A stretch of DNA of 56,152 nucleotides from Gemmatimonadales bacterium. Lineage in GTDB: Bacteria > Gemmatimonadota > Gemmatimonadetes > Gemmatimonadales > GWC2-71-9. Below, piece by piece: positions 17,441-40,554 of the stretch; positions within the stretch are counted from its first letter, which is position 1; the number at the start of each line of letters is the position of its first letter. The stretch spans positions 1 to 56,152 of the forward strand of contig DATAOR010000019.1 in assembly GCA_036265635.1 (NCBI GenBank). Reading direction: 5' to 3'. The position numbers were made by a program, and so were the translations under genes. The notes under the pieces were generated by a model. That model was given only the letters and a program-made list of their open reading frames with translations. It searched no databases and had not been told where the DNA came from.

Positions 17441-17474
17441 CGGGTGGAATCTCCCGGGGTGGGGGCGGCGCCGG

Positions 17475-20666: not shown

Positions 20667-20684
20667 CGATTCCGAGGCATGGGC

Positions 20685-20716: not shown

Positions 20717-20736
20717 TGGCACGTTGACAGAGGGAA

Positions 20737-20811
20737 CGGGGCTGACGGGGCTCGAACCCGCGACCTCCGCAGTGACAGTGCGGCACTCTAACCAAGCTGA
20801 GCTACAGCCCC
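20737..20811 (-). tRNA. tRNA-Asp (anticodon GTC)
   Basis: The minus strand reads GGGGCTGTAGCTCAGCTTGGTTAGAGTGCCGCACTGTCACTGCGGAGGTCGCGGGTTCGAGCCCCGTCAGCCCCG. It folds as a cloverleaf with 7-bp acceptor stem, anticodon arm CCGCA/CTGTCAC/TGCGG, T-loop GGTTCGAGCC and discriminator G. CCA is not encoded. Confidence 0.9.
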
Positions 20812-23113: not shown

Positions 23114-23902
23114 CTACGGTTTTGGAGGCGGGTCAAGTTCAGGCGGGTCCTCGGCTTCCGGCTCCACGACCCAACCGATGTCCAGGGCAGCCCGGCGGGC
23201 GCGGTCGGCCCAACGACGGCGCCGGACCGCCCAGAGGACGATCAGCCCCGCCACGGCCCACCCCCCGCCCGCCACCAGCCACTGGCCCAGGGTGTACCGC
23301 TTCCGCAGCGTCCGGCGCCACTCGTCATCGAACCGGTCCACCGTGAGCCCGGTAGTAGCCAGAACGGCCGCATCGAAGTCCTCGCCACCTTCCAGCCGGG
23401 TCATCAGCGGGGTGAGAGTGCCGGTCGGATTACGGCGGGCCAGCTCCACTACGGCCGAGGCGGCGAGGGCGTAGGCCGCGTCGGCGGTCGACGCCGAACC
23501 GCGCAGCGCACCATCGAGTGCCGCCAAGGTCGGAACCGCCCCGCGCACGACCGACAGGTTGAGCTCCAGCCCGCCGAACCGCTCCCACTCGCCCGCGGCC
23601 CAGGCGGCATACCCCTCGTCGAACCAGAGCGGCACCCGGCCGGCCACCGCCTCGTGCAGGGCCAAGTGAGCCAGCTCGTGGCGGAGCGTGCGGGCCAGAT
23701 CGTTCTGGTCGGCGCGAAGCACGATGGTGCGGGCGCCGGGGAGCGCGGCCGCAGCACCCCAGGCGGGTATCCGCCCGTTGGTCAGGGAATCGAGCAGCCG
23801 GCCGTCAGGGACCACGATGAGGCGGAGAGCACCCGGCGTCCGCACCCCGAGGCCGGGCCAGCGGGCGGGCCGGTCCGCCAGCCTGGCCAGATCGGTGGCC
23901 AC
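23114..23902 (-). CDS. Peptidase-MA-like zinc metalloprotease with C-terminal TM
   Basis: 262 aa with HELAHLALHE (HExxH) and a downstream WFDEGYA glutamate, the gluzincin pattern. C-terminal TM is WLVAGGGWAVAGLIVLWAV. The GTG start is uncertain (see findings). Confidence 0.6.
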   Translation of the reverse strand: MATDLARLADRPARWPGLGVRTPGALRLIVVPDGRLLDSLTNGRIPAWGAAAALPGARTIVLRADQNDLARTLRHELAHLALHEAVAGRVPLWFDEGYAAWAAGEWERFGGLELNLSVVRGAVPTLAALDGALRGSASTADAAYALAASAVVELARRNPTGTLTPLMTRLEGGEDFDAAVLATTGLTVDRFDDEWRRTLRKRYTLGQWLVAGGGWAVAGLIVLWAVRRRRWADRARRAALDIGWVVEPEAEDPPELDPPPKP

Positions 23903-23985: not shown

Positions 23986-24855
23986 CTAGGAGAGCAGGCT
24001 GCGCGGGACCTCACCCCCGGCCGCGGCCACATCCAGCATCTCTTTGCACCGCTTGGCCCACGGGTTGAACTTGTTGGCCTTGTGACCTTCGGCCCAGGTC
24101 TGCATCGCCTCGTCCCGGCGCCCGGCGAACCAGAGGGCGCGACCCAGCTCGAAGTGGGCCTCGATCAGGTTGGGCCCCAGTTTGAGGGTATTCCGGAAGA
24201 AAGTCTGGGCATCCTCGTACATCTCGCGCTCCAGGTATACCAGTCCCAGATAATAGTGGGCATAGAGCGTGGCCTTGCGGTCGTTGTCCAGCCGGATGGC
24301 CTTGGAGAGATGCTCTATGGCCTCCCCGAAGATCCGCTTCTTCAGGCAGATATAGCCCACGTTGATCCGGGCTAGGGCGTTGGCCGGCTCCTTCATGAGC
24401 ACCCGCGAGAAGGTGCCGAGGGCGTCATCGTAATCCTCGTGAAGCATCTGGGCCCAACCCAGGAGTGACTGCGCCTGGACGTCCCCCGGAGAGAGCCCCA
24501 GCGCCTTGTCCAGGGCCTGGATCGCCCCGTCGTAATCGCCCAGCGAGATCAGGCTCCAGCCCTTCTCGATGTAGGTGGAGGCACCGAGGTGATCGGCGTG
24601 GATGGCGGGCCGCGCCCCGGTGAACTGCGGCGCCGTGGCCGGCCCCGCCGCGTGGGCTTGCTTGTAGCGCTCGACCAGTCCCCGGATCTCCTCCTTCATC
24701 TGCCCCAGGTCGGTCAGTGCGCCATCTACCCGCTTGAAGAGAGCGATGATGTCGCGCTTGACCGCTTCCCGGTCGCCGGGCTGCGACGCCGCGGTCAGCC
24801 GCGACTCGATCTCCTGAAACTGCCCCCGGAGGGTGCCGATCAGCGGCTCGCTCAT
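23986..24855 (-). CDS. Coiled-coil + TPR protein, last gene of the che/mgl cluster
   Basis: The track ORF is over-extended across cheW. I trimmed it to the ATG at 24855, which forms an ATGA overlap with the cheW stop. The product is 289 aa with an N-terminal coiled coil and then TPR repeats (YDGAIQALDKALGLSPGD, YDDALGTFSRVLMKEPAN, and others). Confidence 0.75.
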   Translation of the reverse strand: MSEPLIGTLRGQFQEIESRLTAASQPGDREAVKRDIIALFKRVDGALTDLGQMKEEIRGLVERYKQAHAAGPATAPQFTGARPAIHADHLGASTYIEKGWSLISLGDYDGAIQALDKALGLSPGDVQAQSLLGWAQMLHEDYDDALGTFSRVLMKEPANALARINVGYICLKKRIFGEAIEHLSKAIRLDNDRKATLYAHYYLGLVYLEREMYEDAQTFFRNTLKLGPNLIEAHFELGRALWFAGRRDEAMQTWAEGHKANKFNPWAKRCKEMLDVAAAGGEVPRSLLS

Positions 24856-25334
24856 GCCGGCCCTCCCAGCTGGGCGAGCGCAAGGCGTTCGGTCGAGGTC
24901 AGGAGCTTCCTCGCGTTGAGAATGATGATGGTCCGCTCGGGCCGGGTGACAATCCCGGCGATGTAGCCCGCCGCCAGCCCGCTCACCATGGGTCCCGGGG
25001 CGGTGATGGTCGTACTGGCCACCCGGAGGACCTCGCGCACCTGATCCACCAGGACGCCTATCCGCTGGTCGTCCAGATCCACGATCATCAGCCGGGTCTC
25101 CTCCCGCAGCCCCGCCGGCAGCTCGAAGCGCTTGCGCAAGTCCACCACTGGCACGACCCCGCCCTCGTAGGGGACGACCCCCTCGAGAAACGGCGGGGCC
25201 TGCGGCAACGGCGCGGGGGCGATGTGGCGCAGGATCCGCTCCACCTGCAGGATGTCCAGGGCGAATTCCTGGGGCCCGACCCGGAAGCACACCAGCTGGA
25301 CCTGATCCGCCATGTCTGTGGCCGCGCCGGTCAT
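24852..25334 (-). CDS. cheW: Chemotaxis coupling protein CheW
   Basis: 160 aa with a typical CheW fold signature (LVCFRVGPQEFALDILQVERI...VVPVVDLRKRF...IGVLVDQVREV...IILNARKLL). Confidence 0.88.
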   Translation of the reverse strand: MTGAATDMADQVQLVCFRVGPQEFALDILQVERILRHIAPAPLPQAPPFLEGVVPYEGGVVPVVDLRKRFELPAGLREETRLMIVDLDDQRIGVLVDQVREVLRVASTTITAPGPMVSGLAAGYIAGIVTRPERTIIILNARKLLTSTERLALAQLGGPA

Positions 25335-25756
25335 CGCGTCTCCTCTCCGATCCGTGCGCCGAGGGCGGTGAAATCGAGCAGCGGGACCAGTCCCGCCTCG
25401 GTGCGGGCGACCGCGTCGGCGCAGGGGAGCCCGGTGCCGGGGGCCAGCCGAAGACCGGTCCGGTAGAGAATGGTGTCCGCCGACTCAACCTCGAGGCACA
25501 CTCGCCGGCCGGCCAGCTCGACCAGGATACCCACCTCGCTGGGCCGGGCCGGACAGCTCCCGCCGTCGAGCAGCGCCCCGAGATGCACCAGCGGGGTGAT
25601 CCGCTCCCGGACCAGCGCCACCCCCCGCACCGCCGCGTCCCGAGCGGGCACCGGGTACGCCAGGCCCGGGTCGAGTACCTCGACCACCCGGGTGAGCGGC
25701 AGGCCGACCAGGTGCTCCCCGGCCCGGACCACCAGGTAGCCGGCCTCGGCCGTCAC
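25331..25756 (-). CDS. Divergent CheW-like protein
   Basis: 141 aa with a CheW-like pattern ([21 protein letters not shown]...[19 protein letters not shown]...[11 protein letters not shown]...LVPLLDF). It has 4-nt overlaps on both sides. Confidence 0.65.
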
Positions 25757-26826
25757 GCGGCCGCCATCCGGGACAGTTCCTGCGAGACCCGCGCGGCCAC
25801 CTCGCCGATGGGGAGCACATGGCGGACTCCACCCGACTGCAGCGCGGCGCCGGGCATGCCGTAAATAGTGGCGGTCTCCCGATCCTGCGCGATGCCGATG
25901 CCGCCGGCGTCGTGCATCGCGCGGAGCCCTTCGGCACCGTCGCGGCCCAGGCCGGTGAGCACTACCCCGACGGCGCGGGCGCCGAAGACGCGGGCGACGC
26001 TGCGAAACAGCGGATCAGCGGCCGGCCGCACTCCCCACACGGTCGGCGTCTGGTCCAGCTCGAGCCGAGGCCCGTCGGCCGCGAGCGCCACCCGCATGTG
26101 AAAATCGCCGGGAGCGACATAGGCCGTATCGGCCACGATCGGGACGCCGTGCTCGGCCTCGACCACCTGGAACCGACTCTGCGACGCCAGCCGCTCGGCC
26201 AGGCTACGGGTGAATTTGGGCGGCATGTGCTGCACGATCAGCACCGCGGCCTGGTGGCCGGTGGTGAGCTGCGGCACCACTTCCGCCAGCGCCCGCGGCC
26301 CCCCGGTCGAGGCCGCGATGGCGACGACTTGCCGGGCCCGTCCTGGCAGCGCGAACAACGCCGGCGCGGCGGTCGGCCGGGCGGGTCGCGCCAGCACCGG
26401 CATCCGGAGAATCGCCGCGCTGCGCACCGTGCGCAGCGTGCCCAGCACCCGGTGACGGAAGCGGACCATCGACTGGGTGCTCCGGTCCTCTTCCTTGGGC
26501 ACCAGGTCCACGGCCCCGAGCTCGAGCGCCCGGATGGCGGCCCCCGTCCCGGGGCCGGCGTACGAGCTGACCACGACGATGGGCCGGGGCGCCTCGGACA
26601 TGATGTAGCCGATCGCGCCCAGCCCATCGAGCTCGGGCATCTCCAGGTCCATCAACACCACGTCGGGCTCGAGCTCGTGGACTTTCTGCAGCGCATCGAG
26701 CCCGTTCCGGGCGGTCCCCACCGCGCGGAACTCGCCGCTCCCGTCCACCACGTCGGACAACAGCCGCCGGAAGAAGGCGCTGTCGTCCACGATGAGGACC
26801 GTCTGCGTCTCAGAGGGTCGCGACAC
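25753..26826 (-). CDS. cheB: Protein-glutamate methylesterase/response regulator CheB
   Basis: 357 aa. The REC domain has [11 protein letters not shown]...[13 protein letters not shown]. The methylesterase domain has the triad context [14 protein letters not shown] and GLGRDGAEG. Confidence 0.93.
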
Positions 26827-27295
26827 CGTGCGCTACCGACGAGATCTCGACGCGACCATCGGCGGCCCACAGCCGGACGGTCCGGCCGTAGTCGCCTCCG
26901 GTAGCCTCCCCGACCAGCGGCAAGCCGGCGGCATGCAGCATCTGGCGGCAGGCGACCACGTTGCGCTCGCCCATCTGGATGGTCCCCGGCGCGGCCAGGC
27001 TGGCGAACATGCTGGCGCCGCCGACCAGCCGGGCCGTCATCCGGCGCGCGCTCCCGCCGCGCTCGGCCATCAGCTCGAGCAGCTTCGGCACCGCCGTCTG
27101 GGGAAACTTGGCCGGATTGTTGTCCTTCCGGCTCAACGCCGGGGACGGCAGCAGCACGTGGGCCAGCCCCACCACCTTGCTCGCCGGATCGTGCAGCAGG
27201 ATGGCCACGCAGCTCCCCAGGCCCACGGTCATCAGCACGTCGTCGCCGCAGCCGGCCCGCATGTCGGCCACCCGGACCACGATCTCGCCCGTCAC
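26810..27295 (-). CDS. cheD: Chemoreceptor glutamine deamidase CheD
   Basis: 161 aa with [10 protein letters not shown] (catalytic Cys context), GLAHVLLP and ERNV. Confidence 0.9.
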
Positions 27296-28110
27296 GGCGC
27301 CCTCCGGTAGATCCGCTCTCGCGGGTCGACCATGGCGAGTCGCTCGCGGGCCGCACCCAACAGGGTCTCCACCTTGCCCAGGACGAGGAACCCCCCGGGC
27401 GCCAACGCATCGGCGAACCGGGTGAACAGCCGCTCCTGCATCGGCCGATCGAAGTAGATCACCACGTTGCGGCAGAGGATGAGGTCGTAGTCGGTCCGCG
27501 GCGGCGGCTCCGCGTTCAGGTCGTGGAACCGTACCCCGACGCGTCGACGGACCGGCTCGGTCACCCGGCGCAGCTCGCCCGCGTCCTCGAAGTAGCCGGC
27601 AGCCAGCTCGGCCGGCATCTCGGTCAGTCCCTCGCGCCGGTAGCTGGCCGCCCGGGCCCGCTCGAGGCTCACCCGATCGATGTCGGTCGCGTCGACCGAC
27701 AAGCGGGCCAGCTCACCCCCGCGCCCCAGCCCGTCGAGATAGGCGGCCACCAGGATGGCCAGGGTATAGGGCTCCTCACCCGACGCACAGCCGGCGCTCC
27801 AGGCCCTGACCTCGGTCCGGGGCCGGTCGAGCAGCGCGGGCAGGACCGTCTGTCGCACCGCCTGCCAGGTTTCGGCGTTGCGGTAGAACCGGGTCACGTT
27901 GATGGTGAGGGCGTCACGAAGCCGCTCGCACTCGAGCGGTGAACGGGTCAGCACCGCCCGGTAGTCATCGTAGCTGTGTACCCCGCAAGCCCGCATGCGC
28001 ACCGCGATCCGCCGGCGGATGCACTTGTCCTTGTAGGCCTGGACGGTGAACCCGCCGGACCGGGCGATCTCCTGCGCCAGGGCCGCGAAGGCCGGATCGT
28101 CGGAGCTCAC
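27292..28110 (-). CDS. cheR: Chemotaxis protein methyltransferase CheR
   Basis: 272 aa with FYRN, the SAM-binding motif AWSAGCASGEEPYTLA and LILCRNVVIYF. Confidence 0.9.
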   Translation of the reverse strand: MSSDDPAFAALAQEIARSGGFTVQAYKDKCIRRRIAVRMRACGVHSYDDYRAVLTRSPLECERLRDALTINVTRFYRNAETWQAVRQTVLPALLDRPRTEVRAWSAGCASGEEPYTLAILVAAYLDGLGRGGELARLSVDATDIDRVSLERARAASYRREGLTEMPAELAAGYFEDAGELRRVTEPVRRRVGVRFHDLNAEPPPRTDYDLILCRNVVIYFDRPMQERLFTRFADALAPGGFLVLGKVETLLGAARERLAMVDPRERIYRRAP

Positions 28111-29732
28111 GGGGTCATGTCCAGCATCTCGAGGTTGGCCTGGGCCAGCTGATGACCCGGATTGAGCTCGATGGCACGGCTCCAGCTCTCCCGTGCCGCC
28201 GCCTTGTCGCGTCGCTTGTAGGCAATGTTGCCGAGCTTGAAGTAGAGGTCGTCGCCCAGATCGGGCGCCAGCTTGGCGGCCCGGTCGTACGCCTCGCGCG
28301 CGTCGTCGTACCGGCCGTGCCGATAGAGTATGTCCGCCAGGTTCTTCGAGATCTGGGGCAGGCCGGGATCCTCGGCCAGGGCCACGCGGAGGGAGGCCTC
28401 GGCGCCCTGGGCATCACCCTTGAGCTCCAGCAGCACGGCCAGGTTGTTCTGGAGGACGGCGTGGCCGGGATAGGATTCGGCGCCGGTCCGGGCCGCCCGA
28501 AGGGCCCCGGCCCCGTCGTCCATCCCGACGCTGACCAGGGTGGCCGCCCAGTACCACAAGGCCGGGACCGGCCGGTCTCCCAGCAGCTCCATGGTGCGGG
28601 CCAGCCGGCCCTGAGCGACCGCAAACTCCCCGCGCTTGAGCGCGATGACGCTCCAGCCCAGCATGATCCTGGCATCGTCGCGGGCCCGGGCCGCGGCCTC
28701 GCCGTAGGCGGCTTCCGCTTCGTCCAGCCGGCCCAGCCGCTCGAGGGCGTACCCCAGGTTGTGGAGTGCCGCGGGCTTGCCGCCGGCGCCTCCGCCGGCC
28801 TGGGTCAGGGCCGAGACCGCCTCGTCCCATCGCCCCTGGCGGATGGCGATCAGCCCGAGATAGAAGGGTGCGCTGGCGTCGGCCGGGCGGAGATCGGTCA
28901 CCCGGCGGAACTCCCGCAGGCCCTCATCGAGCATGCCCGCCTTGTAGAAGGCGATGCCGAGGTTCCGGTGCTCGTCCACCCGGCTGTCGTTCACCCTGGG
29001 GGCCGCTGCCGCCGAGGTACCGACCCGGTGGGCGAATCCGGCCGTGATGAGACCGTACAGCGCCTTGCCGACCTCGAACTCGATCAGCCCGGACGCGTCG
29101 ATCACCGCCTGCACATCGCGGCTCCCATCCAGCAGCGGGACCAGCCGCTGCTGCTCGGCGGACAGCTCCGGCGCGGACTCCCCGATGTGGGCGGGATCGA
29201 CCGCGAAGATCAGGTCGAACGAGGGGATCTTCTTCTCGATCAGGCTCCACTCGTCGACCCGCCGGGCGCCTTCCAGCAGGAGGAACTCGGGATTGATCCG
29301 GACCAGGAAATCTTCCTGTTCCGGCCGGACGCCGGCCTCGAAATTGAACGTGCCCGAGGTCCAGGTGAACAGGTAATAGACGGCCTCCTCGATCTGGAGC
29401 CGCATGTAGCTCTCCAGCTCCTCCCGACTCAGGTGACCCAGCTCGACCAGGATCTCGCCCAGCTTGGACTCCCGTTCCCCGCCCTGCCGCGCGATGGCCT
29501 GCTCGAGCTGCTCGGCCGAGATCCGGCCGTTCCGCACCAGGATATCGCCCAGGCGGTCGCGACGGTTGACGATGGCGGAGTAGACGATGTGGCCTTCGTC
29601 CAGGTAGATCGTCCCGAAGTTGTGCCGGTCGGCCAGCGCCAGACACCCCGTCCGCCGGCCCAGGAACAGCAGCTGGATGACGTCCGGCAGGCTGGCCTCC
29701 TTGAGGCTGCCCTTGATGGCCATCAGCGCCAT
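28107..29732 (-). CDS. PATAN (DUF4388) domain protein with MshEN-like helical insert and C-terminal TPR repeats
   Basis: The track ORF (to 30542) is over-extended. I trimmed it to the ATG at 29732; an alternative ATG at 29723 forms TGATG with the upstream stop. The product starts MALMAIKGSLKEASLPDVIQLLFLGRRTGCLAL (DUF4388 signature), then tandem RLGDILV.../KLGEILV... helices, then more than 8 TPRs. Confidence 0.75.
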   Translation of the reverse strand: MALMAIKGSLKEASLPDVIQLLFLGRRTGCLALADRHNFGTIYLDEGHIVYSAIVNRRDRLGDILVRNGRISAEQLEQAIARQGGERESKLGEILVELGHLSREELESYMRLQIEEAVYYLFTWTSGTFNFEAGVRPEQEDFLVRINPEFLLLEGARRVDEWSLIEKKIPSFDLIFAVDPAHIGESAPELSAEQQRLVPLLDGSRDVQAVIDASGLIEFEVGKALYGLITAGFAHRVGTSAAAAPRVNDSRVDEHRNLGIAFYKAGMLDEGLREFRRVTDLRPADASAPFYLGLIAIRQGRWDEAVSALTQAGGGAGGKPAALHNLGYALERLGRLDEAEAAYGEAAARARDDARIMLGWSVIALKRGEFAVAQGRLARTMELLGDRPVPALWYWAATLVSVGMDDGAGALRAARTGAESYPGHAVLQNNLAVLLELKGDAQGAEASLRVALAEDPGLPQISKNLADILYRHGRYDDAREAYDRAAKLAPDLGDDLYFKLGNIAYKRRDKAAARESWSRAIELNPGHQLAQANLEMLDMTP

Positions 29733-32017
29733 TCCTCCAGCAGCCGGTCGCCGACTTCGGGCCATTCCCAGACCATCTTCTCGCGACTCCGGGCCGCAGC
29801 GGGCCCGGCACCGAGCACGCCGCTGCTGCGGGCCTCCCGCTTGGGCGCGACCGGCGTCGGGTCCAGCACTTCGCGGGCGAGGGCCGCGTCCGGCGTCCTC
29901 CCCCGGAGGGCGGATTCGTCGATGACCCGCTGGAGCAACGCCTGAGCGGCCCGGAGCGAGTCGGCCGGCCGTGCGGCGATGTAGCCGACCAGCTCGGGGT
30001 CGGTGATCGCCAGCTTGGCCTCGAGGTCCCGCGCCAGGACGCAGGCCCGCACCGCAGGATCCGCCGGTGGCAGCTCGACCACCAGGCCGCCCTCCAGCCG
30101 CGAGCGCAGCCTCGGCTCGACCCCGCGCAGCTCTGCTGGCGGCACCGCCGAAGCGAACACCAGCTGGTGGCCGGCGTCGATCAGGGCGTTGAACAGGACA
30201 AACAGCTCGTCCTGCGTCCGATCGGTGGCCGCGATCAGGTGGACGTCGTCCAGCAGGAACGTCGTCGCGCGGCGGTAGCGGGCCCGCCACCGGGCCACCG
30301 CGTCCCGATCGATGGCCGCGATCAGCTCGCCGGTGAATTCCGGAGCGCTCAGACAGGCGACCGTCTGACCCTCCCGCACCAGTGCGTTGCCGATGGCGTG
30401 GAGCAGGTGGGTCTTCCCCACCGCCGCGCCGCCGATCAGCACCAGCGGGTTGTACCGGTCTCCGGGACTGGCGATGACGGCCCTGGCCGCCTCCAGCACC
30501 ACCCGGTTGCCCGGGGTCTCCAGCAGCGTGTCGAGCTGCCACAGGGGCGACGGCGCCGGCAGCGGGTGACCGTCCTCGCGTGCCTGTCGGACGACCTCCA
30601 CGGCGGCGGCCACGTCGCCGGGATCACGGAACACGGCCAGCCCGGGAAGGTCGGGCGACAGCGCCGCGGCCTCGGCCTGGAGCGCCTGCAGCCGCTCGAC
30701 CTCCTCCTCGAACTCGCGCAGGGCGCGCTCGGGGTCATTCACCATGTCCTGCTGCAGCAAGGCCTCGAGCGTCGCGGTGCGGTAGCCCTCGCCCTGCCAG
30801 CGGAGCACGGCGGCATTCACCCGCGCCCGCCAGGTATCGACCTGCTGGGCCACGGTGGCGGCGATCTCGGACAGGAAATCGGCGAACTCGTCGGGCGCGC
30901 GGCTGAGCACCTCGGCTGGCGCAGCGGCCAGGGCACCCTCCCGCCGGCCGGTGACGTGCTCGGACGCGTTCTGCCGGCTGCCCGGTTCCTCCGCCCCAGC
31001 CGGCTGGGGCCGAACTGCGGGCTCAGCCCTCGCCGACTGGGCCGCGGGGACGGCGGGCGGTGCGGCGCGCGAAGCGCCCACCGGGGTGACGCCTTCGACC
31101 GCTCTCGCCGCCGGCCGGGCCGAGACGGTCTGCCGTTCAGCCGGGGGACCTTCCGCCACCCGCCCAGGCGTCGCTCCAGCCGCCGGTGTCGCCTCACCCG
31201 CTCGATCCTCGCCCGCCGGGCCGGGCGGGCGGGGGCGACCGTTGGCCTCGGCCGACCCGCCACTCTCGGCCGACGTCGCCGGGGGGTCATCCCCGTCCGG
31301 CTCGCCGCCGACCAGCATCCGTGCCTGGCCCGGCACGAGGGGAGCGTCGCTCACCGCCTGAAAGGCGATCAGGCGATTGAGCGCGCCGAGCAGCTCCCGG
31401 ACGTTGTCGATGTCGAGCGCCGCCACCGCCTCCAGCACGCCCGCGCCGAAGCTGGCCCGCCGTTCCTCCGCCTTCCGCCGCAGGATGGCGACCCGGGTCT
31501 CGTAGTCCGGCGCCCCGACGTCGATGATCAGCCCGCCCGCGAAGCGGCGGATCAGGCGCTCGTCCAGCGCCTCGATCTCGGCGGGCGGACGGTCACTGGT
31601 CAGCACGATCTGCCGGCTCGCGGTCTGCAGCGCATCGGTCAGCCGGAGCAGCTCGGCCTGCATCTCACGTCGGTGGGTCAGGAACTGGACGTCGTCCACC
31701 AGCAGGAGGTCCACGTCGAGGAACCGCTTGCGGTAGGCCTCGCCCTGGCCGGCGGCGATGGCGGCGTGGAAGGCCTCGACGAACTCGTCGAGGGTGAGGT
31801 ACTCCACCACCAGCCGCGGGTTGATCGCCCGGGCGGCGTGCCCGATGGCCATGAGCAGATGGGTCTTGCCCAGGCCGGGGCGGGCATCCACGAACAACGG
31901 GTTGTAGACCGTGCCGGGCGACTCGGCGACGGCCTTGGCCGCGGTGACGGCCAGCCGGTTCGAGGCCCCCACGACCAGGGTATCGAACCGGTGGAGCGGA
32001 TTCAGGCTGACGGTCAC
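29723..32017 (-). CDS. Tandem DnaA-domain-III (Hda-like) AAA+ ATPase, no DnaA domains I or IV
   Basis: 764 aa with a GTG start that forms a GTGA overlap with the mglA stop. Module 1 (aa 1-225) is collinear with DnaA domain III: NPLHRFDTLVVGASNRLA, PGLGKTHLL, LLLVDDVQF, IVLTSDRPP, RLIRRFAGGL, NVRELLGALNRL. Module 2 (aa approx. 488-705) has PLWQLDTLLETPGNRVV, GGAAVGKTHLLHAIGN, FLLDDVHLI, LVFASAVPP, RLRSRLEGGL. The two are joined by a Pro/Ala-rich linker and a helical region. Confidence 0.85.
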   Translation of the reverse strand: MTVSLNPLHRFDTLVVGASNRLAVTAAKAVAESPGTVYNPLFVDARPGLGKTHLLMAIGHAARAINPRLVVEYLTLDEFVEAFHAAIAAGQGEAYRKRFLDVDLLLVDDVQFLTHRREMQAELLRLTDALQTASRQIVLTSDRPPAEIEALDERLIRRFAGGLIIDVGAPDYETRVAILRRKAEERRASFGAGVLEAVAALDIDNVRELLGALNRLIAFQAVSDAPLVPGQARMLVGGEPDGDDPPATSAESGGSAEANGRPRPPGPAGEDRAGEATPAAGATPGRVAEGPPAERQTVSARPAARAVEGVTPVGASRAAPPAVPAAQSARAEPAVRPQPAGAEEPGSRQNASEHVTGRREGALAAAPAEVLSRAPDEFADFLSEIAATVAQQVDTWRARVNAAVLRWQGEGYRTATLEALLQQDMVNDPERALREFEEEVERLQALQAEAAALSPDLPGLAVFRDPGDVAAAVEVVRQAREDGHPLPAPSPLWQLDTLLETPGNRVVLEAARAVIASPGDRYNPLVLIGGAAVGKTHLLHAIGNALVREGQTVACLSAPEFTGELIAAIDRDAVARWRARYRRATTFLLDDVHLIAATDRTQDELFVLFNALIDAGHQLVFASAVPPAELRGVEPRLRSRLEGGLVVELPPADPAVRACVLARDLEAKLAITDPELVGYIAARPADSLRAAQALLQRVIDESALRGRTPDAALAREVLDPTPVAPKREARSSGVLGAGPAAARSREKMVWEWPEVGDRLLEEWR

Positions 32018-32616
32018 GCGACCGGCGCTCCAACCGCGAGCCGCCTGAGCACCAGCTCGGAGATGCCGCGGAGGGTCTCGAACACCCCGGTGCCATGGAG
32101 CGCGTCGGCGGCATAGCTGGGCACGGCTCGAAAGTTCAGCGCGTCGTCCATCTCGTCCTGCGACAGGATCAGATCGGCCGGGAGATCCTGCTTGTTGTAC
32201 TGGAACACCACCGGCAGCTGGCGGACGTCCACGCCCTGGGACAGCAGGTTGTCCTGCAGGTTCTGCAGGCTCTCCAGATTGTCGTCGTACCGCCGGGCCT
32301 GACTGTCACCGACGAAGACGACGCCATCGGCGCCCTGCAGCACCAGCTTGCGGGTGGCGTTGTAGTAGCTCTGGCCGGGTACGGTATAGAGCTGGAACTT
32401 GGTGGTGAACCCCGAGATGCTGCCCAGCTCGAGGGGGAGGAAATCGAAGAACAGGGTCCGATCCGTTTGGGTCGCCAGCGAGACCATGCGGCCGCGGCGG
32501 CTCTCGGGCACCCGGCCGTAGACATACTGCAGGTTGGTCGTCTTGCCGGACCGGCCCGGCCCGTAGTAGACGATCTTGCAGGTGATCTCGCGCGACGTGA
32601 AGTTGACCAGGGACAT
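32014..32616 (-). CDS. mglA: Ras-like polarity GTPase MglA
   Basis: 200 aa starting MSLVNFTSREITCKIVYYGPGRSGKTTNLQYVY. It has the MglA-specific TVPGQ in place of DxxG, the intrinsic Arg context TDRTLFFDFLP, and NKQD. Confidence 0.92.
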   Translation of the reverse strand: MSLVNFTSREITCKIVYYGPGRSGKTTNLQYVYGRVPESRRGRMVSLATQTDRTLFFDFLPLELGSISGFTTKFQLYTVPGQSYYNATRKLVLQGADGVVFVGDSQARRYDDNLESLQNLQDNLLSQGVDVRQLPVVFQYNKQDLPADLILSQDEMDDALNFRAVPSYAADALHGTGVFETLRGISELVLRRLAVGAPVA

Positions 32617-32621: not shown

Positions 32622-33083
32622 TTACCGTCCGAAGAGCGCTTTAAGGCTCGCGTTGAGCTCGGTCTCGAAGTGTTCCGCCAGCGGCGGAGCCGTGGCCGGC
32701 TCTCGCGGCGCGGCGACCGCCAGCTGGCCCACCATCTGATCGAAGAAGAGCCGGACCAGGCCGACCGACGTCTCCGGGCCGAACACCACCAGACCGATCC
32801 AGCGACCGCGCGGAGTGGTGAAACCCGCCAGCAGGCAACTCTGCCGTTGCCCGTTGTGGACCAGGGCCTCGAACCGGGCGGCGCCCATCAGGCGGGCCAG
32901 CTCCTCGGTCGAGGCCACGATGCCCGCCCCCAGCGCCGCCGCCGTCATCACGTCGAGCGACCGGCCGAAGCCGTGCTGGGCCACCACCTGGCCGGAGGAC
33001 GTCATGATCAGAGCCAGCCGGGCCGCGCTCTCGGCCAGAAAGGTCTCGAGCGGCGCCGCTACCCAGGGCTCGAGCGCCTTCAT
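32622..33083 (-). CDS. mglB: Roadblock/LC7 protein MglB (MglA GAP)
   Basis: 153 aa with a Roadblock pattern (ARLALIMTSSGQVVAQHG...AAALGAGIVAS...GLVVFGPETSVGLVRL). It lies immediately upstream of mglA, as in the mglBA operon. Confidence 0.8.
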   Translation of the reverse strand: MKALEPWVAAPLETFLAESAARLALIMTSSGQVVAQHGFGRSLDVMTAAALGAGIVASTEELARLMGAARFEALVHNGQRQSCLLAGFTTPRGRWIGLVVFGPETSVGLVRLFFDQMVGQLAVAAPREPATAPPLAEHFETELNASLKALFGR

Positions 33084-33448
33084 CAGGCCAGCCGCCCGGC
33101 AGCCCCGATCATCTCCAGGCGGGCCAGCCCGAGATTGGCCTCGGGGCCTACCACCGCGACCAGCACCAGATCGTCGGGGCCCGGGGCGGCCAGGACGCTG
33201 CCGGACGCGCCGCGAAGCTGGATGAAGGCCGGCGGGCGGAGGCCGGCGCTCTCGGCGGTGCGGGCCAGCCTTCCCACCAGGCTGCCCGCCAGAGCGGCCG
33301 CAGCCTGCCCGTCCACGCCGTCCATCAGCTGGTCGGCCACCACCAGGCCGTCCGCCGCCGCGACCACGAGGGCGCCGCGCACGCCGGGGACCCGGGTCAC
33401 CCGGTCGAGCGCTGTCTGGGTCGCGGTCACGTCTGGCGCTCCAGCCAT
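33083..33448 (-). CDS. Second Roadblock/LC7 protein (MglB paralogue / MglC-like)
   Basis: The track ORF is over-extended. I trimmed it to the ATG at 33448; an alternative GTG at 33430 forms GTGA with the upstream stop. The product is 121 aa: RVPGVRGALVVAAADGLVVAD...LVLVAVVGPEANLGLARLEM. It shares a TGATG junction with mglB. Confidence 0.65.
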   Translation of the reverse strand: MAGAPDVTATQTALDRVTRVPGVRGALVVAAADGLVVADQLMDGVDGQAAAALAGSLVGRLARTAESAGLRPPAFIQLRGASGSVLAAPGPDDLVLVAVVGPEANLGLARLEMIGAAGRLA

Positions 33449-34329
33449 TCCGCCGCCGCGCGCGCGGCCCGCTCGGCCAGCAGCATCACCCGACCGACCG
33501 GCAGCGTCGTGGGCCGGGCCGCCAGCACCACGGTGTCGGCGGTGGCCGGGGCCAGCGCCAGGTGACCATCGGGCGACTCCACCGCGATGACCTCCCAGGT
33601 CCCCAGTCCGAGCAGCCGCGTGGCCCGGGCCGCCTCGCGTGACACGCCGGCGAGCTGCGCCGCTACCCGATCCCCCGCCGCGGTCTCGTCCCCCTCGAGC
33701 CGCCCGCCGAGGCGCATTCCACCGGTGTCCACCAGCAGCAGACCTGCCTCCGCCCCGACGGCACCGAAAGGGCCAGCGGGACCGGCCGGGGGGGGGGCCG
33801 CAGCGGCCGCCGCTGTGTCCTCCCGCCGAGACGTGCCGCGGCCCGGGTCGCGGCCCCAATCTGCCGGACCGTCCGGCGGAGCCGCCGCCGCCGCCTCGCC
33901 CGTACCGGGCGCATCGCGGTGGGCCCGGCGAGCCTCCGGGCCCAGCCGTACGAGGGCCTGGCGAATCGAGGCATCGTCCGGTTCGACCTCGAGCGCACGC
34001 TCGAGGTGGGCCACGGCCGCCCCGGCGTCCCCGGCCCGGTAGTAGAGGAACGCGATCCCCTTGAGCGCACTCGTCCGCATCGGGTCCAGCTGCAGCGCGG
34101 AGGTCCAGGCCTCGAACGCGCCGGCCAGGTCGCCCTGGTCGCTCAGCACCCGCGCCATCAGATCGTGGGCATCCGCCAGCGAGGGATACCGGGTCAGGCC
34201 ACCCCGGGCCACCTTGTAGGCCGGCTCCAGCTGGCCCCGGCGGCGCAACGCCTCGGCCAGCTCCAGGAACGCCAGGCTCCCCGGCTCCTCGGCCAGGCGG
34301 GCGGTGAGGGCCCGGATGTCTTCAGTCAC
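33427..34329 (-). CDS. TPR + disordered linker + Roadblock/LC7-like fusion protein
   Basis: 300 aa with N-terminal TPRs (LELAEALRRRGQLEPAYKVARGGL..., AGAFEAWTSALQLDP) and an Ala/Pro linker. The C-terminal Roadblock-like domain reads AGLLLVDTGGMRLGG...WEVIAVESPDGHLALAPATADTVVLAARPTTLPVGRV. Confidence 0.65.
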   Translation of the reverse strand: MTEDIRALTARLAEEPGSLAFLELAEALRRRGQLEPAYKVARGGLTRYPSLADAHDLMARVLSDQGDLAGAFEAWTSALQLDPMRTSALKGIAFLYYRAGDAGAAVAHLERALEVEPDDASIRQALVRLGPEARRAHRDAPGTGEAAAAAPPDGPADWGRDPGRGTSRREDTAAAAAAPPPAGPAGPFGAVGAEAGLLLVDTGGMRLGGRLEGDETAAGDRVAAQLAGVSREAARATRLLGLGTWEVIAVESPDGHLALAPATADTVVLAARPTTLPVGRVMLLAERAARAAAEWLERQT

Positions 34330-35371
34330 GGTAACGCTCCAGCTCCTTCTCGATCGTTTCTACCGCATGCTGCAGCCGAGCCACCGCGGCGGCCTCGGCA
34401 TCCTCGCCCGGAGTGCGATCGGCCAGCCGGGTCCACGAGGACCACAGGTCGAGCGCCTCGGCAAACCGTCCCAGGCCGGCGTAGCACAGGCCAAGCAGCC
34501 GGCGGGCCTCCGGCATCAGCGGATCCGCTCGCAGGACCTCCTCGAGCGCGCCGGCCGCCAAGTCGTACTGGCCACCGGCCAGCGCTTCGCGGGCGGGCAC
34601 GAGCAGCGCGGCATAGTCGCGGCCGGGCTCCAGCTCCTCGCCAGGATGGGCCGGGTCGTCCAGCACGACGATGCCGGCATTGGTGAGCCCGTAGACGGTG
34701 CGCGCCACCTCGAATTCCGACCGACCCAGGATCTCGGCGAGGGAATGCAGGTCGCGGCTTCCGTCCACCGCCGCCAGCACCTCCCACTCGAACGGCACCA
34801 AATCCAGGATCTCGGACCCCTGGGCTTCCGGCGGCGGCAGCCGGGGCACCAGCCGGAGATGCGAGACCTTGGAGCCGATCCGGGACCATTCGTCGATCCG
34901 CCGGGCGGCCTCCATCAGCAGCGCCTCGGTGGGCACCCGCACCGGTGCCGCGACCGCGGCGTGGTACGCCCCGCCCTCCTCGAACCGGAAATACCCCTCC
35001 GACCAGCGCAGCAGATCGAACACCGTTTCCTCGATCTGGGCCTTGAGCTGCCGATCGAGCTCGCGCCGGGAGATCACGCCGAGCTCCACCAGGATGTCGC
35101 CCAGCCGCCGTCCATCGCCGCCGGCCTGCAGTCCCAGGGCGCGATCGAGGTCGGTCCCGGTGATCTTGCCGACCCGCACCAGGCGGGTACCCAGGGGCTG
35201 GGGGTCGTCGCCCATCGCCGCCGCGACCACGCCGCCCCGATCGAAGCACACGGTGCCCGCGGTTTGCCGCAGCTCCGACGTCACCCGGAGCACCCCGCTC
35301 TTCCGGCCCAGGTCGAGCAGCTGGAAGACGTCCTGGATGTGCAGGTCCTTGAGCGGTCCCTCGAGCGCCAT
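34322..35371 (-). CDS. PATAN (DUF4388) domain protein with MshEN-like helical insert and C-terminal TPR
   Basis: 349 aa starting MALEGPLKDLHIQDVFQLLDLGRKSGVLRV (DUF4388 signature), then tandem PLGTRLV.../RLGDILV... helices and C-terminal TPR-like repeats. Confidence 0.75.
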   Translation of the reverse strand: MALEGPLKDLHIQDVFQLLDLGRKSGVLRVTSELRQTAGTVCFDRGGVVAAAMGDDPQPLGTRLVRVGKITGTDLDRALGLQAGGDGRRLGDILVELGVISRRELDRQLKAQIEETVFDLLRWSEGYFRFEEGGAYHAAVAAPVRVPTEALLMEAARRIDEWSRIGSKVSHLRLVPRLPPPEAQGSEILDLVPFEWEVLAAVDGSRDLHSLAEILGRSEFEVARTVYGLTNAGIVVLDDPAHPGEELEPGRDYAALLVPAREALAGGQYDLAAGALEEVLRADPLMPEARRLLGLCYAGLGRFAEALDLWSSWTRLADRTPGEDAEAAAVARLQHAVETIEKELERYRD

Positions 35372-35373: not shown

Positions 35374-38049
35374 TCAGGCCACCGAGGCCGCGAAGATGTG
35401 CTGCAGGTCTCGGGCGGACCGTGCCCGGGTGCGGGCCTGGCTGGCGTACGGTCCGCCGGGATCCAGCTGCACCACCCGCTCCCAGGCCTGCACCGCCTGG
35501 TCGAACTGCCGCTGGCGTGCCAGGGCGGCCCCCTCGTAGTACAGCGCGCCGGCGTGCTCGGGATCGAACCGGAGCACCCGCTCGAACGCCTCCAGCGCCT
35601 GGGTGGTGCGCCCGTCCTCGAGCAGGGCCCGGCCCAGCGCGGTCAGCGCCTCGAGCTCATAGGGATCGACCTCGAGCAGCCGGACCAGCACCGCCACGGC
35701 GCCGCGTGGCGATTCGGTCCGGCACAAAAGGTCGGCCAGCGCGATGGCCGCCCCGCTGTAGGTCGGCAGCAGGTCCAGCGCCCGCTCGTATGCCGCCCGG
35801 GCGGCGGCGCTGTTGCCCCGCTCATCCTCGAGGCCGCCGAGCTCGAACCAGACCCGGACCAGCGACGGGTCGAGCTGGAGGGCGGCGTTGAACGCGGCCA
35901 GGGCGGCGGCGCGATCGCCCAGCCGGGCTGAGACCTGGGCCTGAAGATGGAGCAGGTCGGGCCGCCCGGGCGCCAGCGCCTGGGCTTCCCGAATGCAGTC
36001 GAGCGCCCCGAGGGCATCGCTGACCGCCAGCCGGACGCGGGCCCGTGCCACCAGGACTTCCACGTCGCCCCGGACGCGACGGGCCAGCTCGTCCGCCAGC
36101 GGTGCCGCGTCACCCGCCCAGCCCAGCGCGAGCAGGGCCCGGATCTCGCCCAGGGTGGCGTCGGGGTCGTCGGGGGTCGCCTGCCGGGCGGCCCGGTAGC
36201 GCTCCAGCGCTTCACCGTAGAGCCCTCGCTTGGCGAAGATGTCACCCAGCAGTACCGCGGTGGCCCCAGCGGCGGCCCCCCGCGCGGCCGCCCGGCTCAG
36301 CTCGGCCGACGCGAGGTCCAGCAGCCCCTTGGCGATGTAGTCGCGCGCCAGGTCGAGGGCATCGCCCGCCGCTCCCGGGCTGGGCGACGCGGGCGGGGCC
36401 AGCTCCGCGAACAGCTGATCGAGCGCCGGTGCCTCGAAGGCGAACTCCCCGGCCAGCTGGTCGCCAGTGGTCTCGGCGGCCAGCTCCGGGGCGATCGCGA
36501 TGGTGGGGTCCTCGTACTGCAGGTCAATGGTGAGGGAGAACTTCTGCGGCACGTAGAGCGGCTCGAGCTCCAGCGCCTGGCGGGTCTCCCGGAGGGCACC
36601 GTCGAAATCGCCCAGCTGGCTCAGCACGAAGCTGAGGTTGTAGCGGGCCGCCGCCATCGTCGGGTCGGCATCCACCGCCCGGGCGAAGGCGTTGCGGGCG
36701 TCGTCGAACCTGCGGAGCTCCATCAGCACCAGGCCGACCCCGTTCCAGGCCACGGCGCTGCCGCTCTGCTCGCTCAGCGCCGCCTGGTATTCCTCGAGCG
36801 CCTGGCGCGGCTGTCGCCGCTGCAGCAAGAGCAGACCGAGGTTGAGTCGGGCGGCGAACAGGGGCCGGTCGCCCGCCAGCGCGCGGCGGAACGCGGCCAC
36901 GGCCTCCTCCCCGGCCTCGCTCGCCCGCACGACGCCCAGATTGTTCCAGGCCAGTTGGTATCCCGGGTCCACCGCGACGGCCTGCTGGTACGATGCCATC
37001 GCCTCGTTCCGCCGCCCCGCCTGGTGGAGGCAGACCCCGCGCTCGTTCCACAGCTTGGGCGAGTCGGCGTGCTCCCGGATCAGCGCGTCGTACAGCTCGA
37101 GCGCGTCCGGCAGCTCGCGACGGAGCAGCCGGACCTCGGCCATCGCCTGAACGGTGAGCCGGCGGTCTTCGCCGCCGTCGAGCGCCAGGCCATATTCGCG
37201 CAGGGCCTCATCGTAGAGACCCTTCTGCCGGAAGGCGAGGCCCAGGTTGTAGTGGGCCAGGGCGCCGCCCTCGACCACCTGGGGCCGCCGTCCGGGCCGC
37301 GTGGCGCCGTGGTCGCCGCCCGGCGCATAGCGCTCGAGGGCGAGGTTGGCCTGGGCTCGCGCCAGCGTCGGATTGAGCTTGATCGCCCGCTTGGTCGCCT
37401 CGCGGGCCTCCTCGTGGCGGCCCATGTCGCCGTAGACGAACGCCAGCAGGTAGTGCGCTTCGGCGTAGTCCGGGTTCCGGGCGATGGCCTCGCGCAGGGC
37501 CTCAAGCGCCGGCTCGTTCAACCCCCGGTTGTACAGCACCTCCCCATGGTAGAACCGGGCGACGGCGCTGGTGGGGTCGTGAGCGCAGGCCCGGTCCAGC
37601 CAGTCGGTGGCCGTGTCGAGATTGCCCCGCGCCTTCTCGGCCAGTCCGAGCTGGAGCATCGCCGGCACGTCGCCCGGGGCCCACGCCAGCAGGGCCTGGA
37701 ACTCGGCAATGGCCTCGGCATGACGGCCCAGGGCGGCGTGGGCCCGGGCCAGCTCCCAACGGGCGTCCCGGTCCTCGGGGTGCCGGCGGACGCGTTCCCG
37801 GAGGGCAGTGATCCGGCGATCGTAGTGCCCGCTCTCCCGGTAGGCGATGTCGAGGTTGCTCTGGGCCACCTGCATGCGGGGATCCAGCTCGAGCGCCCGG
37901 ACGAACTCCGCGATGGCGTCCTCGATCAGCCCCTTCTGGTAGTACAGCACGCCCAGGTTGTTGTGGGCGCCCGCGTCGGAAGGATCGATCCGACGGGCAA
38001 ACGAGCGGAGGACGGCGAGATCGCGGTCCGACAGCACGGGACCGGGCAT
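35374..38049 (-). CDS. Large multi-TPR scaffold protein
   Basis: 891 aa that is almost entirely TPR repeats (AHNNLGVLYYQKGLIEDAIAEFVRALELDP and about 20 similar units). There is no signal peptide or TM. Confidence 0.85.
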   Translation of the reverse strand: MPGPVLSDRDLAVLRSFARRIDPSDAGAHNNLGVLYYQKGLIEDAIAEFVRALELDPRMQVAQSNLDIAYRESGHYDRRITALRERVRRHPEDRDARWELARAHAALGRHAEAIAEFQALLAWAPGDVPAMLQLGLAEKARGNLDTATDWLDRACAHDPTSAVARFYHGEVLYNRGLNEPALEALREAIARNPDYAEAHYLLAFVYGDMGRHEEAREATKRAIKLNPTLARAQANLALERYAPGGDHGATRPGRRPQVVEGGALAHYNLGLAFRQKGLYDEALREYGLALDGGEDRRLTVQAMAEVRLLRRELPDALELYDALIREHADSPKLWNERGVCLHQAGRRNEAMASYQQAVAVDPGYQLAWNNLGVVRASEAGEEAVAAFRRALAGDRPLFAARLNLGLLLLQRRQPRQALEEYQAALSEQSGSAVAWNGVGLVLMELRRFDDARNAFARAVDADPTMAAARYNLSFVLSQLGDFDGALRETRQALELEPLYVPQKFSLTIDLQYEDPTIAIAPELAAETTGDQLAGEFAFEAPALDQLFAELAPPASPSPGAAGDALDLARDYIAKGLLDLASAELSRAAARGAAAGATAVLLGDIFAKRGLYGEALERYRAARQATPDDPDATLGEIRALLALGWAGDAAPLADELARRVRGDVEVLVARARVRLAVSDALGALDCIREAQALAPGRPDLLHLQAQVSARLGDRAAALAAFNAALQLDPSLVRVWFELGGLEDERGNSAAARAAYERALDLLPTYSGAAIALADLLCRTESPRGAVAVLVRLLEVDPYELEALTALGRALLEDGRTTQALEAFERVLRFDPEHAGALYYEGAALARQRQFDQAVQAWERVVQLDPGGPYASQARTRARSARDLQHIFAASVA

Positions 38050-38053: not shown

Positions 38054-38674
38054 TCAGGTCAGGCGGATGGCGTCGAAGATGGCGCGCAACGAGGGCGTGT
38101 CCGGCAGCAGCAGGAAATGGCCGCTCAGCGGCTCGGAGGCACCCTCCACCCGGAAGGAGGTCTCGACGCAGAACACGAAGTCCCGATCGTGACCGAAATT
38201 GAGGTACGTCGTGGTCAGCACCGCCCCGCTCAGGTCGACCACCAGGCTCGGGACCGACGGGACCAGCATCATCCCCATGAAGTCGCTCAGGGCGTTCATG
38301 TAGGCGCTGGCCAGGATGTTGCCCGCCTCCTTGAGACCCGACTGCTCCATCTCGGTGAACGGGCCGGTGGTGCCGGGCTTGCGCCTGAGCAGGATATCGC
38401 AGAGCGCTCGGGCCGATCGCTCGGGAAACATCACCAGCGTCCGTCCCGTGAGGTCGCCCATCATGTGCATCAGTACTGCCGCCACCACCTCGTCGGGCGA
38501 GCCGACCAGGTCGGTGACTTCCTCCAGCGGCCGGACGTTGACCTCGGGCACGGCGATCATGATGGTGCGGTTGGTCATCTGCGACAGTGCCGTCGCCGCG
38601 TGGCCGGCGCCGATGTTGGCGACCTCACGCAGCGCGTCGAGCTGCAGCTCCTTCAGGCCCCGCGCGTCGTCCAT
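38054..38674 (-). CDS. cheC: CheY-P phosphatase CheC
   Basis: 206 aa with two CheC active-site repeats, LDALREVANIGAGHAATALS and QSGLKEAGNILASAYMNALS (ExxN). Confidence 0.85.
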   Translation of the reverse strand: MDDARGLKELQLDALREVANIGAGHAATALSQMTNRTIMIAVPEVNVRPLEEVTDLVGSPDEVVAAVLMHMMGDLTGRTLVMFPERSARALCDILLRRKPGTTGPFTEMEQSGLKEAGNILASAYMNALSDFMGMMLVPSVPSLVVDLSGAVLTTTYLNFGHDRDFVFCVETSFRVEGASEPLSGHFLLLPDTPSLRAIFDAIRLT

Positions 38675-40552: not shown

Positions 40553-40554
40553 CG

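Follow-up and report, generated by a model that had tools for sequence, protein, structure and literature searches.

The 56,152-nucleotide (nt) stretch of DNA analyzed here, called the window throughout (contig DATAOR010000019.1 of the Gemmatimonadales bacterium assembly GCA_036265635.1, positions 1 to 56,152), encodes a protein, DnaA2, that carries two copies of the AAA+ core (domain III) of the replication initiator DnaA in one chain. Judged by their sequences, both modules are DnaA-derived and are of the DnaA type rather than Hda-like. We consider it somewhat probable that DnaA2 is a nonreplicative descendant of the DnaA core that acts as an ATP-dependent switch or scaffold of a PATAN/TPR signaling complex; the DnaA motor seems, from the sequence features described below, to have been reused as a signaling switch. 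The architecture and the genomic context are new for a well-known ATPase clade, and public annotation of these proteins is generic or wrong. DnaA2 and its parts (positions in the window; aa, amino acids) are as follows.

29723..32017, minus strand: tandem DnaA-domain-III ATPase (DnaA2), 764 aa, GTG start (list of open reading frames [ORFs] and Pfam).
31313..32005, minus strand: module 1, complete DnaA-type AAA+ (aa 5 to 235; PDB match, 44.5% identity to Bacillus subtilis DnaA domain III).
30896..31294, minus strand: disordered linker rich in A, P, G, and R (aa 242 to 374, 133 aa; predicted local distance difference test [pLDDT] score of <50 in AlphaFold 2 [AF2], and composition).
30572..30889, minus strand: family-specific four-helix domain (aa 377 to 482; AF2 pLDDT of 77 to 92).
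29864..30553, minus strand: module 2, DnaA-type AAA+ (aa 489 to 718; PDB match, 35.9% identity to B. subtilis DnaA domain III).
29726..29791, minus strand: conserved C-terminal peptide RSREKMVWEWPEVGDRLLEEWR (orthologue alignment).

A Pfam search of DnaA2 returned PF00308 (Bac_DnaA, E=9.4e-88) in two stretches and neither PF08299 (domain IV) nor PF11638 (domain I) at E<=0.01. The protein opens directly with the domain III N-linker, LNPLHRFD, and the N-terminus MTVxLNPLxRFD is conserved among its orthologues. These data bear out a preliminary description, made from the sequence alone, of a 764-aa ORF with two DnaA AAA+ modules and no domain I or IV. In sequence searches of the PDB, the best match of each module was domain III of B. 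subtilis DnaA (8BV3/8BTG; E=1.4e-53 for module 1 and E=7.9e-40 for module 2), and the DnaA proteins of T. maritima and A. aeolicus ranked next. Hda was matched by module 2 only (E of ~4e-6). When the AF2 model of DnaA2 (mean pLDDT of 70.7; AAA+ modules at aa 10 to 235 and 495 to 718) was searched with Foldseek, DnaA domain III was again at the top, with Hda next among the single-module matches. The two modules are 34.9% identical to each other, and this divergence, together with the first rank of DnaA domain III in these searches, points to modules that are DnaA-derived and to a duplication that is old.

Other identities were tried and rejected. The earlier label "double Hda-like" had to be dropped, since the modules are DnaA-type and the NCBIfam scores fall short of the Hda/HdaA cutoffs (TIGR03420, 153 versus 194.8; NF006571 or NF005982, 49.5 versus 297 and 42.6 versus 268); the protein also has two modules, not one. 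The DnaA equivalog model, TIGR00362, scored 420 against a cutoff of 343.9, with only profile positions 103 to 324 of 437 matched; this cutoff is passed solely because the scores of the two modules add up. IstB/DnaC models were likewise not reached (NF038214, 92 versus 200; DnaC NF005931, 36 versus 357), the PDB and Foldseek rankings agreed, and a test of IS21/IstB context found no transposase near DnaA2 in the window and a locus that is syntenic in 79 genomes. Profile, PDB, and Foldseek rankings therefore place both modules at DnaA, consistent with the original assignment to DnaA/Hda rather than to IstB or another AAA+ clade. A candidate Hda-type clamp-binding motif, QLDTLL (aa 494 to 499), proved to be the module 2 homologue of the N-linker, with an orthologue consensus of RLDDLV in which the Q is not conserved, and no QL[SP]LPL-type beta-clamp motif was found at the DnaA2 N-terminus; the reported lack of an Hda-type clamp motif thus stands. 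Kinship with type II double-ring AAA+ proteins (p97, NSF, and ClpB) was rejected on Foldseek TM-scores of ~0.24 with a root mean square deviation of >20 Å, the modules being of the initiator clade and ~250 aa apart. A role in antiphage defense was also set aside, as PADLOC gave just a weak P-loop match to DrmD.

The catalytic residues differ between the modules. In module 1, the key residues are K51/T52, D108/D109, sensor I D142, R154, the Arg finger R158, and sensor II R207. Module 2 retains Walker A K535, Walker B D590/D591, R636, the Arg finger R640, and sensor II R689, and its sensor I Asp is replaced by A624. A motif census was taken in Gemmatimonadales (n=120) and in Longimicrobiales-type members (n=118). 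Among the Gemmatimonadales orthologues, 8/8 catalytic positions of module 1 were retained in 120/120; every position of module 2 was also retained in 120/120 except the sensor I Asp, which was present in 9/120 (Ala in 106/120). All module motifs quoted in the preliminary description are present, and sensor I of module 2 is degraded as stated there; its sensor II, which had been called altered, keeps R689 in 120/120. In Longimicrobiales, module 1 retains the Walker A Lys (117/118), the first Walker B Asp (118), the second Walker B Asp or Glu (117), sensor I (118), and the Arg finger (115). Module 2 of this group has the Walker A Lys in 0/118 and the Walker B DD in ~20/118, and its lid and sensor II are deleted (108 gaps); the R281 equivalent nevertheless persists in 118/118, as does the Arg finger in 116/118. 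One Longimicrobiales member modeled with AF2 has a lid-less AAA+ core as its module 2 (pLDDT of 81). The census in both orders upholds the proposal of one catalytic and one altered module.

In a neighbor-joining tree, a crude method and the only one used, the module 1 sequences of both orders clustered together and the module 2 sequences did likewise, as separate clades. The tandem arrangement is therefore probably older than the split of the orders. The simplest reading of these sequences suggests one conserved ATP site, in module 1, and one conserved donor of an Arg finger, in module 2.

The regions outside the modules are as predicted in outline: a linker of ~140 aa that was presumed to be disordered corresponds to the AF2 disorder at aa 242 to 374, and the helical segment described after it corresponds to four helices at aa 377 to 482. 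Linker length is hypervariable, and the linker occupies mostly gaps in the orthologue alignment. The linker of the window protein exceeds that of its orthologues by ~110 residues (whole proteins, 764 aa versus 650 to 710 aa). The four-helix domain carries the motifs DEFxxFL, W..G(F/Y).T..LE, and RDP...AE and is kept in nearly all of the family, including relatives at 34 to 40% identity; one representative, P0161, is without it. Neither this domain nor the tail had a significant Pfam match (just a sub-threshold DUF3322), and a cryptic MshEN/GspE_N identity of the four-helix domain was rejected at an hhalign probability of 2%. The C-terminal motif EK.V.WP....R..EE occurs in nearly all tandem members down to 34% identity. 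In the AF2 model, disorder at aa 724 to 754 tethers a helix at aa 753 to 763, and the acidic, Trp-containing peptide is reminiscent, by analogy, of EEVD-type TPR ligands.

By its gene junctions, DnaA2 is translationally coupled to a PATAN-TPR gene within an mglB-mglA/che operon. The mglA stop and the DnaA2 start overlap as GTGA (32014-32017, 4 nt), and the DnaA2 stop overlaps the PATAN-TPR start as TGATG, the true ATG being at 29723 with a 1-nt overlap. Both overlaps had been noted before, and the junctions support the cotranslation within an mglBA/che operon that was proposed from them. In minus-strand order, the genes are those for CheW, CheY, CheA, CheC, TPR (891 aa), PATAN-TPR, TPR plus Roadblock, Roadblock, MglB, MglA, DnaA2, and PATAN-TPR, followed by CheR, CheD, CheB, CheW, TPR, Peptidase_MA_2, and TPR; from CheA through the 500-aa TPR gene, they are separated by gaps of <=12 nt or overlap. 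The features around DnaA2 are listed here.

41039-41521, minus strand: CheW, upstream (Pfam).
40555-40917, minus strand: CheY (Pfam and ORF list).
38687-40678, minus strand: CheA, start uncertain (Pfam).
38054-38674, minus strand: CheC (Pfam).
35374-38049, minus strand: large TPR protein, 891 aa (Pfam).
34322-35371, minus strand: second PATAN-TPR protein (Pfam).
33427-34329, minus strand: TPR plus Robl (Pfam Robl_LC7 and TPR).
~33083-33448, minus strand: Robl (Pfam Robl_LC7).
32622..33083, minus strand: mglB, Roadblock/LC7 GTPase-activating protein (PF03259; E of ~1e-8 to MglB of M. xanthus and T. thermophilus).
32014..32616, minus strand: mglA, group 1 MglA GTPase (249 bits, E=2.6e-73 to M. 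xanthus MglA).
28107..29723, minus strand: PATAN(DUF4388)-TPR partner of DnaA2 (Pfam DUF4388 and TPR).
27292-28110, minus strand: CheR (Pfam).
26810-27295, minus strand: CheD (Pfam).
25753-26826, minus strand: CheB (Pfam).
25331-25756, minus strand: CheW, second (Pfam).
23986-25488, minus strand: TPR (Pfam).
23114-23902, minus strand: Peptidase_MA_2, membrane anchored (Pfam; HELAH zinc motif and a C-terminal transmembrane helix).

No chemoreceptor (methyl-accepting chemotaxis protein) gene was found anywhere in the 56-kb window, despite the che operon (20861-41521). The block is flanked on one side by yggS-pnp-ileS-lspA-rluD and on the other by the dcw cluster (rsmH, ftsI, murE ... ftsA, ftsZ); the two flanking regions, given in order of position, are 5295-20795 and 41469-48067. 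In Gemmatimonadales, the DnaA2 module lies directly upstream of this cell division cluster.

DnaA2 was called an orphan in the preliminary description, and this term no longer applies: the sequences assign it to a family that has hundreds of members and is almost confined to Gemmatimonadota. A protein database search yielded at least 120 orthologous clusters at >990 bits, with lengths of 650 to 710 aa, which NCBI names "DnaA/Hda family protein [Gemmatimonadales]" and JGI names "chromosomal replication initiator protein DnaA." When one genome per species was scanned, 205 relatives were confirmed, for which 79 loci were kept. All of these are Gemmatimonadales but for three short contigs, probably the result of misbinning, that are labeled Solirubrobacterales, Bacillota, and Verrucomicrobiia. 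Representatives at 50% identity, searched exhaustively, added many more tandem proteins of 580 to 700 aa, down to 34% identity. Distant members bear the names Longimicrobiales or Gemmatimonadota (P0180 is Gemmatimonadota), and P0393 is labeled "Candidatus Cloacimonetes bacterium 4572_55," a metagenome-assembled genome (MAG); two further named proteins, P0399 and P0266, are from Gemmatimonadota and Sumerlaeota, respectively. The family layout is DnaA domain III, a variable disordered linker, the four-helix domain, a second DnaA domain III, and the C-terminal peptide, with a PATAN and/or TPR gene adjoining. One metagenomic protein from ENA, P0199 (673 aa), carries a genuine Bac_DnaA_C domain IV after two Bac_DnaA modules; this domain content makes it a protein of the replication initiator type in which the AAA+ core is duplicated.

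The gene context was compared by tblastn with 17 window proteins. The whole 17-gene order and orientation are conserved in the 79 loci as far as the contigs reach, at identities of 49 to 87% for DnaA2 and 83 to 96% for MglA, and both extra Roadblock-containing genes are syntenic in all loci compared. The 4-nt mglA/DnaA2 overlap is present in 67/73 assessable Gemmatimonadales loci, and the overlap with PATAN-TPR, the gene immediately downstream, is present in 63/64. More divergent relatives have the following gene orders (identities are those of DnaA2).

L080, 34% identity: rluD, CheY, CheC, TPR, PATAN, TPR, Robl, MglB, MglA, DnaA2, PATAN-TPR, TPR, PeptidaseMA, TPR, dcw; mglBA present, without CheA, CheW, CheR, CheD, and CheB.
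L083, 44% identity: che genes, TPR, PATAN, MglA, DnaA2, PATAN-TPR, CheD, CheB ... PeptidaseMA; without MglB.
L082 (37% identity), L089, and L090, Longimicrobiales: yggS, divIVA, pnp, ileS, (rluD), DnaA2, PATAN(-TPR), PeptidaseMA; without mgl and che genes.
L084 (34% identity) and L091: CheW, CheY, CheA, AAA, CheW, CheC, TPR (~825 aa), PATAN, DnaA2; without MglA.
L085, 36% identity: bactofilins ... TPR (867 aa), DnaA2.

L080 retains the 4-nt overlap with mglA at 34% protein identity. The linkage to mglA that the preliminary description had stressed was thus recovered in Gemmatimonadales, L080, and L083 and is absent from the three Longimicrobiales loci and from L084, L085, and L091; it is a trait of one large branch. 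The near-constant partner is instead a PATAN and/or large TPR gene, which adjoins DnaA2 in every context looked at, and a large TPR protein (820 to 906 aa) recurs upstream of DnaA2 in L080, L083, L084, L085, and L091. In five of these loci (L080, L082, L083, L089, and L090), the DnaA2 module occupies the same chromosomal position across orders, after yggS-(divIVA)-pnp-ileS-(lspA)-rluD, and Peptidase_MA_2 accompanies DnaA2/PATAN even in the Longimicrobiales lineages without mgl or che. In L089 (11948-14460), a DDE transposase of an insertion sequence splits the PATAN-TPR gene after DnaA2, leaving a 55-aa remnant and a separate 250-aa TPR ORF. In L085, a divergent Gemmatimonadota member, the TPR-DnaA2 pair is preceded, a few genes upstream, by two genes (3765-4667) for bactofilins, proteins that serve as polar landmarks in other bacteria.

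The PATAN-TPR partner of DnaA2 contains a tandem MshEN-type cyclic di-GMP (c-di-GMP) motif, two 24-residue motifs at aa 56 to 108. It scored 49 bits against NF053729 ("c-di-GMP-binding domain, MshE-related"; cutoff, 38), and its aa 53 to 113 align with PilF of T. thermophilus in the c-di-GMP-binding GSPII region (6F8L, E=3.7e-10) and with MshEN of V. cholerae (5HTL, E=2e-6). Both motifs are conserved in 76 PATAN-TPR orthologues, Longimicrobiales included. The alpha-helical insertion of both PATAN domains in the window (28107-29723 and 34322-35371, minus strand) is such a tandem MshEN-type motif. Because NF053729 was matched above its cutoff and the sequence aligns to the PilF GSPII and MshEN sites, both window PATAN-TPR proteins are probable c-di-GMP receptors.

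Fusions of DnaA domain III to the same kinds of partner occur elsewhere. In two independent contigs (L086:4309-15923 and L087:2681-13179), the pilD-pilB interval of a type IV pilus cluster holds three paralogous genes whose products, of 398 to 1990 aa, are fusions of MshEN with one or two DnaA-III modules. In a Candidatus Sumerlaeota MAG (L088:1-3222), HBF34406.1 joins ~800 aa of TPR repeats to a C-terminal DnaA-III module (1073 aa); NCBI lists this protein as partial, and its gene starts at the contig end. PATAN domains are reported to bind PilC as well as the N-terminal part (GspE_N/MshEN) of PilB1 (10.1101/2021.06.11.447907), and PATAN genes neighbor mglA/mglB (10.1101/2021.06.11.447907; PMC4316618). 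Taken together, the fusions, the motif in PATAN, and the published binding of PATAN to PilB1 and PilC suggest, by Rosetta stone-type arguments, that the regulation of pili or polarity involves physical cooperation of DnaA-III modules with TPR proteins and with proteins that bear the MshEN motif.

These observations can be assembled into a model of the signaling role. The Arg finger of module 2 would be supplied to the ATP in module 1, in cis or between protomers, and the flexible linker would permit side-by-side pairing of the modules. Binding of ATP and its hydrolysis would then switch the protein between conformations or oligomeric states, while the tethered acidic, Trp-containing C-terminal peptide and the four-helix domain would dock onto the TPR/PATAN partners. 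Signals from c-di-GMP (via PATAN), MglA-GTP, and Che phosphorylation could feed into the DnaA2 complex, which would in turn set the activity or the polar positioning of a motility machine, type IV pili being the likeliest candidate. A broader version is possible, but we would not call it probable: DnaA-type modules may form an unrecognized class of ATP-driven switch in polarity or type IV pilus signaling, with MshEN/PATAN and TPR proteins as adaptors and, in Gemmatimonadales, with direct wiring to MglA and Che. Several results weigh against the signaling role of DnaA2. The predicted template modeling scores of the AF2 models of the window protein and of the Longimicrobiales member were 0.41 and 0.47, so that the relative placement of the modules is not predicted; no type IV pilus gene is present in the 56-kb window; some fast-evolving members (e.g., P0168 in L080) have lost the Arg fingers of both modules; and the ileS-rluD/divIVA and dcw neighborhood would also fit a cell cycle role. 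In addition, the Arg finger of module 1 is conserved in Longimicrobiales, though module 2 there has no ATP pocket. It must therefore have another target, which may be another protomer or another protein.

The last two points would suit a regulator of replication or the cell cycle, in which DnaA2 would cooligomerize with DnaA and inactivate it by a clamp-free, Arg finger-dependent mechanism resembling that of Hda in RIDA (regulatory inactivation of DnaA), or would cap or sequester DnaA filaments, thereby tying initiation to polarity or division. Among AAA+ proteins, DnaA is indeed the nearest to both modules. Module 1 resembles DnaA as closely as a true orthologue does (B. subtilis DnaA domain III, 44.5% identity; invariant DnaA boxes) and has an Arg finger that may act on another protein, and in two orders the locus is flanked by divIVA/ileS/rluD and the dcw cluster. 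DnaA2 lacks, however, domain I, domain IV, and a conserved clamp-binding motif; it never adjoins dnaN, dnaA, or oriC-type genes in 90 loci; its steady partners are PATAN/TPR, che, and mgl genes; and the MshEN and TPR fusions of DnaA-III reside in pilus clusters, not in replication loci. We therefore consider this explanation unlikely, and coupling of polarity to replication is less favored than a nonreplicative signaling role. Of still lower probability, to the point of being remote, is an ATP-dependent binder of single-stranded DNA that would serve type IV pilus functions such as DNA uptake through the initiator-specific surface of domain III. The DnaA-III fold is retained with its initiator-specific helices, MshEN-DnaA-III fusions occur within pilus clusters, and the module 2 consensus keeps basic residues after Walker B, as K-D-R, which we take to be the equivalents of E. 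coli DnaA K243/R245. Longimicrobiales module 1, in contrast, has Q-S-E where those basic residues would stand, the competence genes comEC and dprA were not found near the locus, and the che/mglA/PATAN context suggests a regulatory role, not one in DNA processing.

The variable presence of mgl and che genes raises the alternative that their linkage is historical and that DnaA2, PATAN-TPR, and Peptidase_MA form a self-contained unit, concerned, for example, with membrane protein quality control or protease regulation, around which mgl and che genes were inserted in Gemmatimonadales. The minimal trio without mglA and che at the same chromosomal position in Longimicrobiales would fit this account, as would L080, which has mglBA and none of the five che genes named above. 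We nevertheless doubt it: the 4-nt overlap of mglA and DnaA2 is retained as widely as 67/73 loci and as distantly as L080, the independent lineage of L084 and L091 joins DnaA2 to che, TPR, and PATAN genes without the peptidase, and PATAN and MglA/B are known coplayers. The reading that we prefer remains that of an ATP-dependent switch or scaffold in a PATAN/TPR signaling complex.

The literature, searched in full text, yielded no account of a DnaA-like ATPase together with MglA, PATAN, or MshEN, in line with the earlier statement that no link of a DnaA/Hda-type ATPase to MglA or chemosensory systems had been described. To our knowledge, DnaA-clade ATPases are known solely as DnaA in replication initiation, as Hda/HdaB in the control of initiation, as DnaC/DnaI in the loading of helicase, and as IstB in transposition. 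If the proposed role is true, it opens new functional territory for the DnaA clade and adds a new player to bacterial polarity systems. The motor of a replication initiator would then have been co-opted for spatial regulation on one occasion at the least and perhaps on several (the tandem family, the MshEN fusions, and the Sumerlaeota TPR fusion). Module 2 of Longimicrobiales, reduced to an Arg finger donor, would offer natural variation for asking how a two-module initiator-type ATPase works. The passing TIGR00362 score and the JGI naming also form an annotation trap that can mislead dnaA and oriC calls in Gemmatimonadota genomes and MAGs.

DnaA2 shares with DnaA domain III (B. subtilis 8BV3/8BTG, T. 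maritima 2Z4R, and A. aeolicus 1L8Q/3R8F) the fold and the N-linker, Walker A and B, box VII Arg, and sensor II; sensor I is matched in module 1 only. Unlike DnaA, it has two copies per chain, lacks domain I, a domain II-type linker, and domain IV, adds the four-helix domain and the C-terminal peptide, and is encoded in a che/mgl/PATAN operon, not with dnaA-dnaN. Hda/HdaA (Shewanella 3BOS and E. coli 5X06) is, like DnaA2, a DnaA-derived AAA+ protein without a DNA-binding domain, and its use of an Arg finger in trans is a further likeness; Hda, however, consists of one module and has a clamp-binding motif at its N-terminus, and neither feature holds for DnaA2. In ORC/Cdc6 and in the clamp loader delta' subunit, subunits with dead ATP sites donate Arg fingers. 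Their pairing of a competent ATP site with a degenerate Arg finger neighbor resembles what the sequence of Longimicrobiales module 2 suggests, but these are multisubunit DNA-loading machines, whereas the DnaA2 units are fused in one chain without a DNA recognition domain.

Among polarity systems, that of M. xanthus, composed of MglA/MglB and Frz (effectors SgmX, RomR/RomX, and MglC), has in common with the window a group 1 MglA, MglB, MglC-like Roadblock paralogues, a large TPR protein, and che genes, all of which are in one operon in the window. The Myxococcus module as described has no AAA+ ATPase, and mglBA there lies outside the che operon; the link of DnaA2 to MglA is restricted to part of Gemmatimonadota. 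The partners of DnaA2 also carry the PATAN domain of the regulators of Synechocystis type IV pili (PixG, PixE, and LsiR, which bind PilB1 and PilC). In Synechocystis, PATAN is fused to REC; in the window, it is fused to TPR and has an MshEN-type c-di-GMP motif, and it is coupled to a DnaA-type ATPase, a partner of a kind not described for PATAN regulators.

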